Assembly: GCF_016026235.1 (NCBI RefSeq)
Contig: NZ_CP065613.1
Source of the DNA: Escherichia coli
GTDB taxonomy: Bacteria > Pseudomonadota > Gammaproteobacteria > Enterobacterales > Enterobacteriaceae
Length of the DNA: 64,000 nucleotides
Strand: one strand, 5' to 3'
Below the pieces are notes generated by a model. That model was not told where the DNA came from. It saw nothing but the letters and a program-made list of their open reading frames with translations, and did not search any database. Positions 1 to 55,575 of the stretch are shown one piece after another. The first letter of the stretch is position 1; every line of letters starts with the position of its first letter. The translations under genes and the position numbers were made by a program.

Positions 1-939
<939 letters not shown>

Positions 940-977
940 CGTTTATGCCGGATGGTATGCCATCCGGCGCGCATGAA

Positions 978-1787
978 TTACTTCTGGCACTGCCGACAAT
1001 AAAACGTTGCCCGCTGCGCATGTTTAGTCGCCACAATCGGCGTACCGCACACCCGACAGGGCTCGCCTTTTCGCCCGTAAACCTGCAATTCCTGAGCGAA
1101 ATAGCCCGGTTTACCATCACTTTGCAGAAAATCTTTCAGCGTTGTACCACCCTGCTCAATCGAACGCAGCAACACCGCTTTAATCACCCGAGCTAACAAT
1201 TCACACTCTGCCAGCGACAGTGATGACGCCAGCCGATCCGGATGGATCCCCGCCGCAAACAGTGATTCGCTGGCATAGATATTCCCTACCCCTACCACCA
1301 GCTTGTTATCCATCAGCCACGGTTTAATCGCCGTTTTTTTCTTCGCGCACTTCTGATGCAGATACTCACCATTGAAATCGTCGCTAAGCGGCTCCGGTCC
1401 AAGATGAGCCAGCACGTTGTGCCCTTCCAGCTCTTTGGTCCACAGCCAGGCACCAAAGCGGCGCGGATCGGTGTAGCGCAGCACTTTGCCGTTGCTCATC
1501 ACCAAATCCACATGGTCATGCTTTTCAGGGGGAAGTTCTTCTGGAAGGATGCGCAGGCTGCCAGACATCCCCAAATGAATGATAATCCAGCCCTCAGGCA
1601 GCTCCAGCAGCAGATATTTAGCCCGCCGCTGCACGCTAAGCACTGGTTGGTCGCTTAAACGGTAGATCTCTTCTGAAACCGGCCAGCGCAAGCGTCCGTT
1701 GCGCACCACCGCATGAAGAATGGTTGCACCAACGAGATGCGGTTCTATGCCGCGGCGGCTGGTTTCAACTTCGGGTAATTCAGGCAT
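978..1787 (-). CDS. mutM: formamidopyrimidine-DNA glycosylase (Fpg/MutM)
   Basis: 269 aa beginning MPELPEVE (N-terminal Pro-Glu catalytic motif) and ending in a C-terminal zinc finger CRVCGTPI...CRQCQ. Confidence 0.95.
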
Positions 1788-1836
1788 AGCATCTCCAGGA
1801 ATGAACAGATGCAGTCAATATGGGGGCAAGCAGATA

Positions 1837-1869
1837 ACAAAAAACCCCGCCGGAGCGAGGTTTTTTGTT
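1837..1869 (-). terminator. rho-independent terminator after rpmG (hairpin plus U-run on the minus strand)
   Basis: Minus-strand CCUCGC-UCCG-GCGGGG hairpin followed by UUUUUUGUU, directly downstream of the rpmG stop. Confidence 0.5.
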
Positions 1870-1884
1870 ACATCAAAGCGAGAA

Positions 1885-2055
<171 letters not shown>

Positions 2056-2072
2056 TTATTTCCTCTAAGTAC

Positions 2073-2330
<258 letters not shown>

Positions 2331-2525
2331 TTAGCTCGAGCTTCGTATGGGGTATTGGCGCCTCGTCAGGCTTTACAGCCCGGTCATCGCAGTTCTATGT
2401 GAACTCTCGATTGCCAGGCCCAAATGCCAAACCCGAGATTCTCAAAGGTGGCGTAGTATACGCTGACTCAGCGATGTGCTCAAGTCCCGAACAGACAAAG
2501 ATCCCGAAGGATCGCGCATAGCGGG

Positions 2526-3200
2526 TTAAATCCAGCCGCGTTCGGCAAAAGAAACATACTCTCCACGCCCAATCACGATATGGTCGAGCACGCGTAAATC
2601 CATGAACTGACAACTCTTTATTATCCGTTCAGTAATGAGTTTATCCGCTTTACTGGGTTCAGCGCAACCCGAAGGGTGATTATGTGCAAGGATCAGCGCC
2701 GAGGCGTTTATTTTTATCGCTTCGCGGATAATTTCCCGAGGATGGACTTCAACATGGTTTAGCGTGCCGGAAAAAAGACGGCTATGCGTTATAACCCGGT
2801 GTTGGGAGTCGAGAAAGATCACCATAAAGATCTCCCGCTCCTCACCCGTGAGCTGGCTTTGTAAAAATTCCCTCGTCATCTCCGGGCTGAGTAAAGGGCT
2901 TTCTTCACGCATCCGCACGTTGTAGTAACGCCGCGCCAGTTCAGCAATCCCCTTTAACTGGGCAAATTTCGCCACGCCAATTCCATGAACGCCACTAAAT
3001 TGTTCATATTCAGAGGTTAACAAGCCATAAAGAGAGCCGAAATTCTCCAGCATCTCTTTTGCCAGGGTTAATACATCTTTACCGCGCGTTCCGGTACGCA
3101 GAAATAGCGCCAGCAGCTCGACATCCGTTAAGGCGCTAATACCAAACTTCAGCATTTTTTCGCGCGGCATCAACAGCTGTGAATTGTTTTTCACCTTCAC
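2526..3200 (-). CDS. yicR: UPF0758/RadC-like JAB-domain protein YicR
   Basis: 224-aa ORF with helix-hairpin-helix N-terminus and JAMM-like HNHPSG motif; the true start may be a few codons downstream of the listed one. Confidence 0.9.
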
Positions 3201-5739: not shown

Positions 5740-5772
5740 GTCAGGCAGAAACGTCTGCCTGACGCTTTTCTT
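5740..5772 (+). terminator. slmA rho-independent terminator (hairpin could act bidirectionally toward the convergent RT gene)
   Basis: GTCAGGCAGA-AACG-TCTGCCTGAC perfect 10-bp stem followed by GCTTTTCTT. Confidence 0.5.
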
Positions 5773-6730
5773 ACCCTGCAACCAGCATTCGCTTAACACT
5801 CTCTCTCGCCTGTTGAAAGGCCTCATCCTCAGGGTTGATTTGCAATAACCAGTTTATTCTTCCCTGCAAAGCATAAAGATACGCCGTTGCCTGTGCGTGG
5901 AGATCGCCAGAAGGATCAAGTTCACCACGATGACTAAGATGCGAAATAACGCCATATTTTTGGCACAAGTGTACTTCCTGACGCAGCGCCCGGCGCGCTT
6001 CGCGGGCAAGCTGTGGTTTGTGATTAACAACAATCCCGGTTACTTGCTGGCGCTTACAGGCAGCTATCAGGCAGCTTTTGCGTTGATAGAGGCTCAGGCC
6101 CAGCTCCGCTAACAATCCGCACACTTTATTTTTAACCTGGCGGGCATTGAAGTGACCTGAAAAGGTCATGTCATCGCAGTAGCGGGTGTAGGTAATTCCC
6201 CGAGCCTGACACCATTCCCCTATGCGTTCATCAAAACAGCGCATCACAAGATTGGAAATGGCTGGCGAAGTTGGTGCCCCCTGTGGTAACGCGTCGTTAT
6301 AACAACAAATCCAGGTCAGCATGGTTACCACATTACGTGGCAACTGGACCTGGCGAAACACACGCCAGACCTGTAACCAGCTAATGCTATCGAAAAAGTT
6401 TTCGATATCGAGTTTCAGGATCTGCGGCTGTTGGCAGTGTGGCTGCGCGTTGCTGACGATTGGGCAACCTGGTCGGTAGGCTGTAGCAAAAGGGGAAAGC
6501 GGAAATTGTGAAAGGACGTTCTTAAGAATGTTGCGCTGTACGGTTTTGAGCAAGTAATCAGGGGCTAACACCAGCCGCTGACCACCGTGGCGTTTAGAAA
6601 GAATAATGCGTCGGTAATGGCGTCCGGCATGATTACTGAGCGCATACAACCGCTGTATTTCTTTATCGGCGCTCCAGCCCGGCGAGCCGAACAAATCGAG
6701 CGCCAGAAGGGTTATCCGGGTAGCATCCAT
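5771..6730 (-). CDS. retron-type reverse transcriptase, consistent with retron Ec107
   Basis: RT motifs in the translation: LKLDIENFFDSI, LPQGAPTSPAISN, YTRYCDDMTFSG (YxDD box) and the retron-typical VTG motif (QQVTGIVVN). The internal ATG at 6730 gives 319 aa; the listed ORF begins at an upstream GTG. Lies between slmA and pyrE, where retron Ec107 is reported (recalled, not searched). Confidence 0.9.
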   Translation of the reverse strand: MDATRITLLALDLFGSPGWSADKEIQRLYALSNHAGRHYRRIILSKRHGGQRLVLAPDYLLKTVQRNILKNVLSQFPLSPFATAYRPGCPIVSNAQPHCQQPQILKLDIENFFDSISWLQVWRVFRQVQLPRNVVTMLTWICCYNDALPQGAPTSPAISNLVMRCFDERIGEWCQARGITYTRYCDDMTFSGHFNARQVKNKVCGLLAELGLSLYQRKSCLIAACKRQQVTGIVVNHKPQLAREARRALRQEVHLCQKYGVISHLSHRGELDPSGDLHAQATAYLYALQGRINWLLQINPEDEAFQQARESVKRMLVAG

Positions 6731-6763
6731 TCCACTCTCCACATCACGGCGGCCAAAAGAGGT

Positions 6764-8575: not shown

Positions 8576-9439
8576 ATGATCCGCAGTATGACCGCCTACG
8601 CCCGGCGTGAAATCAAGGGTGAATGGGGGAGCGCAACCTGGGAAATGCGCTCGGTAAACCAGCGTTATCTGGAAACTTACTTTCGTCTGCCGGAGCAGTT
8701 CCGTAGCCTTGAACCTGTCGTTCGTGAGCGTATTCGTTCTCGCCTGACGCGCGGTAAAGTGGAATGTACCCTGCGCTATGAGCCAGATGTTAGCGCGCAA
8801 GGTGAGCTGATCCTCAACGAAAAACTGGCTAAACAGCTGGTAACTGCCGCGAACTGGGTAAAAATGCAGAGTGACGAAGGGGAAATCAACCCGGTTGATA
8901 TTCTGCGCTGGCCGGGCGTGATGGCAGCCCAGGAGCAGGATCTTGACGCCATTGCCGCTGAAATTCTCGCGGCGTTGGATGGCACCCTGGACGACTTTAT
9001 TGTCGCGCGCGAAACCGAAGGTCAGGCACTGAAAGCATTGATCGAGCAGCGTCTGGAAGGCGTCACCGCCGAAGTGGTCAAAGTCCGCTCCCATATGCCG
9101 GAAATCCTGCAATGGCAGCGTGAACGCTTGGTCGCGAAGCTGGAAGATGCTCAGGTGCAGTTGGAAAACAACCGTCTGGAGCAGGAGTTGGTTCTGCTGG
9201 CACAACGAATTGACGTTGCCGAAGAGCTGGACCGCCTCGAAGCGCATGTCAAAGAGACCTACAACATTCTGAAGAAAAAAGAAGCCGTTGGTCGTCGTCT
9301 GGACTTTATGATGCAGGAGTTCAACCGCGAGTCGAACACTCTTGCGTCGAAGTCTATCAATGCCGAAGTGACAAACTCCGCGATTGAGCTGAAAGTGTTG
9401 ATTGAGCAGATGCGCGAGCAGATTCAGAATATTGAATAA
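8576..9439 (+). CDS. yicC: YicC-family stress-induced protein
   Basis: 287 aa MIRSMTAYARREIKGEWGSATWEMRSVNQRYLETYFRLPEQFR... matches the YicC family. Confidence 0.95.
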   Translation: MIRSMTAYARREIKGEWGSATWEMRSVNQRYLETYFRLPEQFRSLEPVVRERIRSRLTRGKVECTLRYEPDVSAQGELILNEKLAKQLVTAANWVKMQSDEGEINPVDILRWPGVMAAQEQDLDAIAAEILAALDGTLDDFIVARETEGQALKALIEQRLEGVTAEVVKVRSHMPEILQWQRERLVAKLEDAQVQLENNRLEQELVLLAQRIDVAEELDRLEAHVKETYNILKKKEAVGRRLDFMMQEFNRESNTLASKSINAEVTNSAIELKVLIEQMREQIQNIE

Positions 9440-9475
9440 CTCGTAACGCCAATTCTTACTTTTCAGCCTTCACAA

Positions 9476-9510
9476 ATGCCGCCCACTCAAACAGAGCGGC
9501 ATTTTTCTTC
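9476..9510 (+). terminator. yicC rho-independent terminator
   Basis: ATGCCGC-(loop)-GCGGCAT hairpin followed by TTTTTCTT. Confidence 0.4.
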
Positions 9511-9599
9511 CCCGCAACTTTCAATTCTGTTTTGCGTGCCTGCTCCAGATTTTGCGATGTCTTTTTGCCCAGCACACTGAGAACGTGAGACACTCACAA

Positions 9600-9615
9600 C
9601 TGTATATAAATACAG
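9600..9615. promoter_or_regulatory. LexA operator (SOS box) in the dinD promoter
   Basis: CTGTATATAAATACAG fits the CTGT-N8-ACAG LexA consensus, about 45 bp upstream of the dinD start. Confidence 0.6.
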
Positions 9616-9660
9616 TTACAGATTTACTTTCTTTGCAATCGATATCACATGGAGTGGGCA

Positions 9661-10484
9661 ATGAACGAACATCATCAACCTTTTGAAGAGATACGGCATT
9701 ATGGCACTGAAGGGCAAGAATTTTGGTCAGCGAGAGAATTGGCACCGTTACTGGATTATCGGGACTGGTGCAATTTTCAAAAGGTACTGACCCGCGCGAC
9801 TCAAGCGTGCGAAGCCAGCAATCAAGCTGCATCTGACCATTTCGTTGAAACCACCAAAATGGTTGTATTAGGTTCAGGGCTCAACGAGAACTTGAAGATG
9901 TTCATCTCTCCCGCTATGCCTGTTACCTGGTAGTACAAAACGGCGACCCTGCGAAACCGGTTATTGCGGCAGGACAAACTTATTTTGCTATCCAGACCCG
10001 ACGGCAGGAGCTGGCTGACGATGAAGCTTTCAGGCAACTTCGTGAAGACGAAAAGCGTCTTTTTCTGAGAAATGAATTGAAAGAACATAACAAACAATTA
10101 GTTGAGGCAGCGCAGCAAGCTAGGGTAGCGACAGCTATCGATTTCGCCATATTTCAGAATCATGGTTACCGGGGGCTGTATGGTGGATTAGATCAGAAAG
10201 CCATCCATCAGCGGAAGGGGCTGAAAAAGAGTCAGAAGATCCTGGATCATATGGGTTCAACAGAACTGGCGGCTAATCTCTTTCGAGCTACCCAAACAGA
10301 AGAAAAACTTAAGCGGGATGGCGTGAATTCAAAACAGCAAGCTAACACCACACACTTTGACGTAGGTCGCAAGGTGAGGCAAACCATTCAGGAACTTGGC
10401 GGAACCATGCCTGAGGAGTTGCCGACCCCGCAGGTCAGCATTAAGCAGTTGGAAAACAGTGTAAAAATTACAGAGAAAAAATAG
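9661..10484 (+). pseudogene. dinD: DNA damage-inducible protein DinD, disrupted by a 1-bp deletion frameshift
   Basis: ORFs 9649..9933 and 10077..10484 are the same protein in two frames. Frame 0 resumes ...[21 protein letters not shown]... right after a GGG run at 9877-9879, which is one G short of the GGGG remembered in the intact K-12 gene. Total span is 824 nt against 825 expected. Confidence 0.75.
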
Positions 10485-10775
10485 CAGAAACTAAAAACTC
10501 TTTTTGTTGATTGAGACACCCGATGCGTAAGCCAAAGTCCAGGTGCGGTGAATACAATAGCTAAACATTGCACCTTTCTTTTCCACCCCTCAGTTTTAAC
10601 CTATTTTTTCTTATGCATTTTCTCAGACAAGAAGTCAGAAGAATGCATCTCCGCTACAGAAAATAGAGATTTCACATAACTACAAGTTATCAATTCCCCC
10701 TCACCTTAAAAAATCTCAATCGTGACAATGCGCACAAATCGCTACCCTGCCAGACAGATTTTTAGGGAGAGAACC

Positions 10776-13118
<2,343 letters not shown>

Positions 13119-55212: not shown

Positions 55213-55232
55213 TACTGTTTATTTATACAGTA
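55213..55232. promoter_or_regulatory. LexA operator controlling the tisAB/istR-2 promoters
   Basis: TACTGTTTATTTATACAGTA fits CTGT-N8-ACAG, with a TATAAT -10 box immediately downstream (55241-55246). Confidence 0.6.
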
Positions 55233-55466
55233 AACTTCTATAATATCACTGTACGCAATGTGTTATGCGGGGGCCGCATCGTTACCCGGCGCACTAAGTC
55301 CTGGCTGAAACGGGTGGTGCCGTCAGCGCCTTAACCCCGCGTGAGCACACTGTGTTATGTCAACAAGCACAACGTTTCTCCTTGAGATACCGCGTGCACA
55401 ACAGCTGGCAACAGGCAGCGGAAAGGTACGTCAGCTGGCAGTGCTCCTGAACCACAGGAGACGCGT

Positions 55467-55556
55467 ATGAGCCTGGTGGATATCGCCATTCTTATCCTCA
55501 AACTCATTGTTGCAGCACTGCAACTGCTTGATGCTGTTCTGAAATACCTGAAGTAA
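55467..55556 (+). CDS. tisB: type I toxin TisB (SOS-induced membrane peptide)
   Basis: Hand-translated 29-aa ORF MSLVDIAILILKLIVAALQLLDAVLKYLK. Confidence 0.85.
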   Translation: MSLVDIAILILKLIVAALQLLDAVLKYLK

Positions 55557-55575
55557 TTCAGATTCAAGTCGCACC

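Follow-up and report, generated by a model that had tools for sequence, protein, structure and literature searches.

Genomic context of dinD

The window, i.e., the whole 64,000-nucleotide stretch of E. coli DNA analyzed here, carries dinD between well-recognized neighbors. According to its list of open reading frames (ORFs), the gene order is yicC (8576–9439), dinD (9661–10484), yicG (10722–11393) and ligB. This is the synteny expected of DinD, and the same order is annotated in approximately 20 complete E. coli genomes. The locus corresponds to the known gene dinD (pcsA, b3645), which encodes the LexA-regulated DNA-damage-inducible protein D (NCBIfam NF008573) and has been named among the genes with a known SOS box (PMC6590174).

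The window has the same LexA box as the known gene. A perfect 16-mer, CTGTATATAAATACAG, lies at 9600–9615 upstream of dinD, intact as claimed in an earlier note on this DNA; shuffles of the window gave an expectation of zero chance matches. On the strength of this motif, the gene is predicted to belong to the SOS regulon. The exact 16-mer was found at 19 of the 20 loci tested, CFT073 being the exception. By direct reading, a GGAG ribosome-binding site is placed 6 nt ahead of the ATG at 9661, and it is invariant in the alignment with an intact allele. A scan of positions 9440–10721 with a simple sigma-70 consensus and a terminator consensus gave no match, and no Rfam family was matched between 5000 and 11000. 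The repeat search over 9440–10720 returned just two short matches, probably due to chance. The features of the locus, in window coordinates, are as follows.

9600–9615, + strand: LexA (SOS) box, upstream of dinD
9651–9654, + strand: GGAG ribosome-binding site
9661–10484, + strand: dinD pseudogene, 824 nt versus 825 nt in the intact gene
9661–9933, + strand: remaining ORF, with 73 native DinD residues, 17 out-of-frame residues and then TAG
9877–9879, + strand: three Gs where intact alleles of this class have four, marking the 1-base deletion; the next bases are C (9880) and T (9881)
9880–10484, + strand: untranslated dinD remnant (residues 75–274 and stop), which remains open in the −1 shifted frame and has a single missense change specific to the lineage
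9974, + strand: synonymous A (GGA), 97 bases downstream of the lesion, a marker of common descent
10123, + strand: G to A, which would be G155R in the repaired frame, located in the dead part of the gene; private to the window's sublineage and common to the SRR23545530 assembly

Two neighboring regions deserve a separate description. The yicC–dinD spacer at about 9445–9460, just past the yicC stop codon, is an insertion point in relatives. The window has no insertion there; an island of roughly 7.7 kb that includes a DUF927 protein is present in FDAARGOS_943 and two draft assemblies, a P4-family primase in strain A34, and an IS2 element in strain 95-3192. Further upstream, a 323-aa reverse transcriptase is encoded on the − strand (5771–6742) between slmA and pyrE, with about 280 nt of non-coding sequence up to pyrE (7026); slmA and pyrE adjoin in K-12 and in most of the loci compared. 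The protein matches Pfam RVT_1 and the PADLOC model RT_Ec107-like (434.9 bits), and these matches identify the element as a retron of the Ec107 type. Presumably, this is exactly the pyrE–ttk (slmA) spacer at which Ec107 was described.

A single-base deletion interrupts the dinD reading frame

By direct reading, translation from the ATG at 9661 proceeds in frame 1 for 90 codons and meets a premature in-frame TAG at 9931–9933, whereas the native dinD stop codon, the TAG at 10482–10484, lies in frame 0. The ORF list contains the upstream frame as 9649–9933 (94 aa with an upstream ATG as the start, 90 aa with the ATG at 9661) and the downstream frame as 10077–10484. In frame 0, the stretch 9849–10484 is open and codes for DinD residues 74–274. 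The frame switch at GGG followed by CT (9877–9881), the span of 824 nt instead of 825 (9661–10484) and the shortening of the protein to about 90 aa had all been described in the earlier note, and each was confirmed.

In the alignment with the intact 825-nt allele of strain 14EC033, the sole length difference is found in the G run, GGG in the window versus GGGG in the intact gene. One G has thus been lost from the GGGG run at codons 73–74 of dinD. The intact allele shared by 14EC033 and CFT073 (WP_001297973.1) is 99.0% identical to the window's dinD at the nucleotide level; the window's gene is one G short at 9877–9879, and hence only 73 native residues are made. The intact form given in the earlier note, GGGG followed by CT, proved to be right for the majority allele class (2630 genomes), but not for K-12 MG1655, which has no G run at this site.

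The family assignment was assessed with the NCBIfam DinD equivalog model NF008573, whose curated cut-off is 242 bits. With one G restored, the conceptual translation scores 497.7 bits and matches the model from end to end (residues 1–274). The fragments actually encoded both fall below the cut-off, with 111.2 bits for the 90-aa product and 224.7 bits for the 135-aa C-terminal ORF. Since the real fragments are below the cut-off and the repaired frame is full-length, the DNA qualifies as a dinD gene that encodes no DinD protein. Together with the 14EC033 alignment, these scores support the claim of the earlier note that the gene was inactivated through a single-base deletion in the G run.

The intact DinD contains a Pfam Bro-N domain (PF02498) at residues 10–105 (44.1 bits), of which the 90-aa product keeps 59 of the 96 profile positions (27.5 bits). 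The truncation therefore removes the final third of Bro-N together with the entire C-terminal part of the protein. The likeness to the Bro-N/BRO family proteins of phages and large DNA viruses resides in this N-terminal domain of DinD. In contrast to the viral proteins, the Bro-N domain of the window is interrupted at residue 73, and the gene is chromosomal and LexA-regulated, not part of a prophage.

Frequency of the deletion allele in E. coli

To count the alleles at the site, queries of 43–45 nt were used, in which each 28-base megablast seed word spans the diagnostic site, against 5426 complete E. coli genomes. Three classes were obtained:

GGG allele at the site: 136 genomes
GGGG allele at the site: 2630 genomes
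divergent K-12-type sequence with no G run at the site: 1898 genomes

Together, these counts account for 4664 of the 4727 complete genomes that have the locus. The deletion allele reaches a frequency of about 3% among the complete genomes, and DinD is encoded in a single frame in about 97% of the genomes with the locus. Among the matches listed, GGG was carried, among others, by the O145:H28 Shiga-toxin lineage, by O169:H41 and strain ST540, and by isolates of swine, poultry and wild-animal origin.

Independently of the lesion, dinD is dimorphic in E. coli. Over codons ~11–82 (9690–9905), the K-12 type and the window type share just 54% nucleotide identity, and the flanks of this divergent stretch are 96–98% identical between the two types. 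The dinD of O157:H7 is of the window type in its 5′ part and K-12-like in its 3′ part, which indicates that the gene is a recombination mosaic.

The deletion is shared by related genomes

The closest complete genome, FDAARGOS_943, is 99.9% identical to the window over 25 kb (98.4% for the next best genome) and has the same GGG. In both FDAARGOS_943 and strain B2, the same dinD deletion is marked as 'frameshifted' by the NCBI PGAP annotation. The exact 90-aa product was located on at least 24 contigs (73 index blocks) of SRA-run assemblies and NCBI assemblies, representing several independent samples. One of these, the assembly of run SRR23545530, differs from the window at one position in 6273 bases and has both the GGG and the A at 10123. 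The earlier note had held that a frame structure normal for the lineage would speak against an inactivated gene. The structure is indeed normal for the lineage, but the comparison shows a fixed, inherited pseudogene and not an intact gene.

Base-by-base inspection of GGG alleles covered 14 of the 136 complete genomes, four Logan SRA assemblies, one NCBI draft and the window itself, rows that are not phylogenetically independent. The alleles annotated as 'frameshifted' in FDAARGOS_943, B2, O145:H28 strain RM12761, ST540 and others have the same G-run deletion and the linked A at 9974. Most of the flagged alleles (O145:H28 and O169:H41 types) are 823 nt long and have a second deletion at 10171–10175, whereas the window, FDAARGOS_943 and B2-like alleles have only the first.

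Linkage, flanking haplotypes and decay of the GGG allele

GGG alleles occur on at least four flanking haplotypes, namely the window/FDAARGOS_943, B2-swine, O145:H28 and O169:H41 types. At 9690 and 9769, they show each of the four possible variant combinations, which indicates recombination. Despite these differing flanks, the A at 9974 is present in 21 of 21 aligned GGG alleles, and the five aligned GGGG alleles that share this N-terminal class all have G there; the association between 9974A and GGG is thus complete in the 26 aligned alleles of the class. The GGG allele of strain B2 and the intact allele of 14EC033 differ only at the G run and at 9974 over about 950 bases, a pattern for which an imported patch is a simpler explanation than a second independent deletion. 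The 9974A variant is found in 234 genomes overall. As these include intact alleles of the K-12 type, it is a linked marker, neither unique to the pseudogene nor proof of its descent.

Several observations point to continued decay of the gene after the first lesion. A second 1-base deletion, in the run of five Gs at 10171–10175 (window coordinates), was detected in 135 genomes, where the 136 GGG genomes and the 135 second-deletion genomes are separate counts whose overlap was read in the inspected genomes. There, a second frameshift is present in 12 of the 14 other GGG alleles from complete genomes. The dinD of O169:H41 also has an extra nonsense codon, and that of RM9088 an IS1 insertion. The ratios of nonsynonymous to synonymous codon differences relative to 14EC033 are 3:4 for the window, 5:8 for the O145 type and 9:8 for the O169 type, compared with 0:10 and 1:9 for the intact alleles of CFT073 and O111. 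These differences, in counts that are small and not independent, suggest relaxed constraint. With only one lesion and one private missense change in its lineage, the window's allele is the least decayed form of the pseudogene. The locus thus shows the features of a frameshift pseudogene: an indel leading to a premature stop codon, inheritance of the lesion, and signs of relaxed constraint.

Weighing of alternative explanations

Homopolymer single-base indels are a common type of sequencing error, and the earlier note had allowed that the missing G might be such an error of sequencing or assembly, the dinD of the organism itself being intact. That the rest of dinD is still open, with one private missense change only, would fit this view. 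Even so, an error is extremely improbable: GGG is found in the nearest complete genome, FDAARGOS_943, and in 136 complete genomes, sequenced in many laboratories and on many platforms, the exact truncated product recurs on at least 24 contigs, an independent assembly from a short-read run (SRR23545530) departs from the window at a single base of 6273 and has the same GGG and 10123A, and a run of four is short for systematic homopolymer error. The explanation was rejected on these grounds. A real deletion could have arisen repeatedly if the G run were a mutational hot spot or a phase-variable switch, with GGGG and GGG interchanging and dinD being turned on and off across lineages. The presence of GGG on at least four flanking haplotypes, in unrelated O145:H28, O169:H41, ST540, swine and wild-animal isolates, may be read in this way, as may the second G run of dinD that is one base short in 135 genomes. 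However, independent slippage would not give the observed pattern, in which aligned GGG always comes with 9974A and GGGG of the class always with 9974G. Known contingency tracts are far longer than runs of four to five bases, and the tract here has three to four bases, not the long repeat with repeated gain and loss that defines a phase-variable contingency locus. The added disabling lesions in other GGG alleles also mean that the off state was not reversed. Given the complete linkage to 9974A, recurrent loss or phase variation was discarded as the principal account, and we regard it as very unlikely. The comparison of alleles favors a single old deletion spread by recombination, since 9974A accompanies every aligned GGG while the flanks differ.

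Two further readings concern what the interrupted gene may still produce. Recoding, either by programmed −1 ribosomal frameshifting or by transcriptional slippage at the G run, might restore full-length DinD; for about 28 codons (9849–9933) the two frames overlap, the downstream one is open throughout, and the translation signals are intact. Yet the sequence around the shift, GGT TCA GGG CTC, does not form an X XXY YYZ heptamer, and the site, TTCAGGGCTC, offers neither the slippery heptamer nor the long homopolymer that recoding calls for. Three Gs are insufficient for RNA polymerase slippage. Moreover, DinD is encoded in a single frame in about 97% of the E. coli genomes with the locus, and other GGG alleles have secondary lesions, namely a second frameshift in 12 of 14 and in some cases also a stop codon or IS1. 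Recoding was rejected on the basis of the shift-site sequence and of these lesions, and we consider it practically negligible. A functional remnant, in the form of the 90-aa Bro-N fragment, a 135-aa C-terminal fragment starting at the TTG at 10077, or the SOS-induced RNA itself, e.g., through its 16-nt complementarity to tisAB RNA, appears highly doubtful as well. In its favor, conservation in the window's lineage extends to the LexA box, ribosome-binding site and downstream frame, gene callers predict the 135-aa ORF, and the tisAB complement described in PMC2577331 is found at 10436–10451 with one G–U pair, tisAB itself lying at about 55215–55560 of the window. Against it, Bro-N is kept at just 59 of 96 positions, a by-eye reading gave no obvious start signal ahead of 10077, the C-terminal frame is also destroyed in most of the other GGG alleles inspected, the nonsynonymous excess suggests relaxed constraint, and PMC2577331 could not show an effect of tisAB on dinD mRNA.

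The tisAB/istR locus of the window has a LexA-box-like site, CTGTTTATTTATACAG, at 55215–55230, and the TisB ORF ends near 55556. Complementarity between tisAB and the 3′ end of dinD has been reported (PMC2577331); in the window, the 16-nt tisAB segment CAACTGCTTGATGCTG (55521–55536) faces a dinD side with T in place of C, which gives the G–U pair.

Interpretation and significance

Together, our results make it almost certain that the window carries an inherited frameshift pseudogene of dinD, which is fixed in its lineage and occurs on several E. coli haplotypes, always together with 9974A. A single event of replication slippage is the most likely origin of the deletion. The resulting allele would then have spread as a short patch via homologous recombination and probably been maintained by drift. 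Persistence of this kind is plausible, as dinD is dispensable for growth and its product is a non-essential modulator of RecA filaments. A passage in PMC4849656, citing Uranga et al. (2011), places DinD among the proteins that ensure the removal of RecA filaments.

No change affects the LexA box, the putative promoter region or the ribosome-binding site, so the SOS response would still be expected to yield a transcript and the truncated 90-aa peptide, but no functional DinD. Any phenotype of the loss is expected to be subtle. We hold it to be improbable, if somewhat less so than the alternatives weighed above, that loss of DinD is favored, or that the SOS-inducible transcript has been kept for a role at the RNA level, e.g., pairing with tisAB RNA; both ideas are no more than compatible with what was observed. 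The idea of a favored loss arises because the null allele is found on at least four flanking haplotypes and apparently moved as a short recombination patch. If it were true, taking away an inhibitor of RecA filaments could lead to more recombination or to altered timing of the SOS response.

The lesion is already flagged in many genomes by the RefSeq annotation, and it is ordinary, not a new kind of feature. Our literature search for a dinD pseudogene found no publication on this allele. For annotation, dinD at 9661–10484 should be marked as a pseudogene instead of being entered as two genes or as a short 'BRO family protein', and the GGG lesion should not be 'corrected' as a sequencing error. 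The patch defined by GGG and 9974A offers a handy marker of recombination at the dinD locus. For the biology of E. coli, the finding shows that a RecA modulator under LexA control can be dispensed with in nature: it is absent from about 3% of sequenced E. coli, and some of these null alleles have decayed further.
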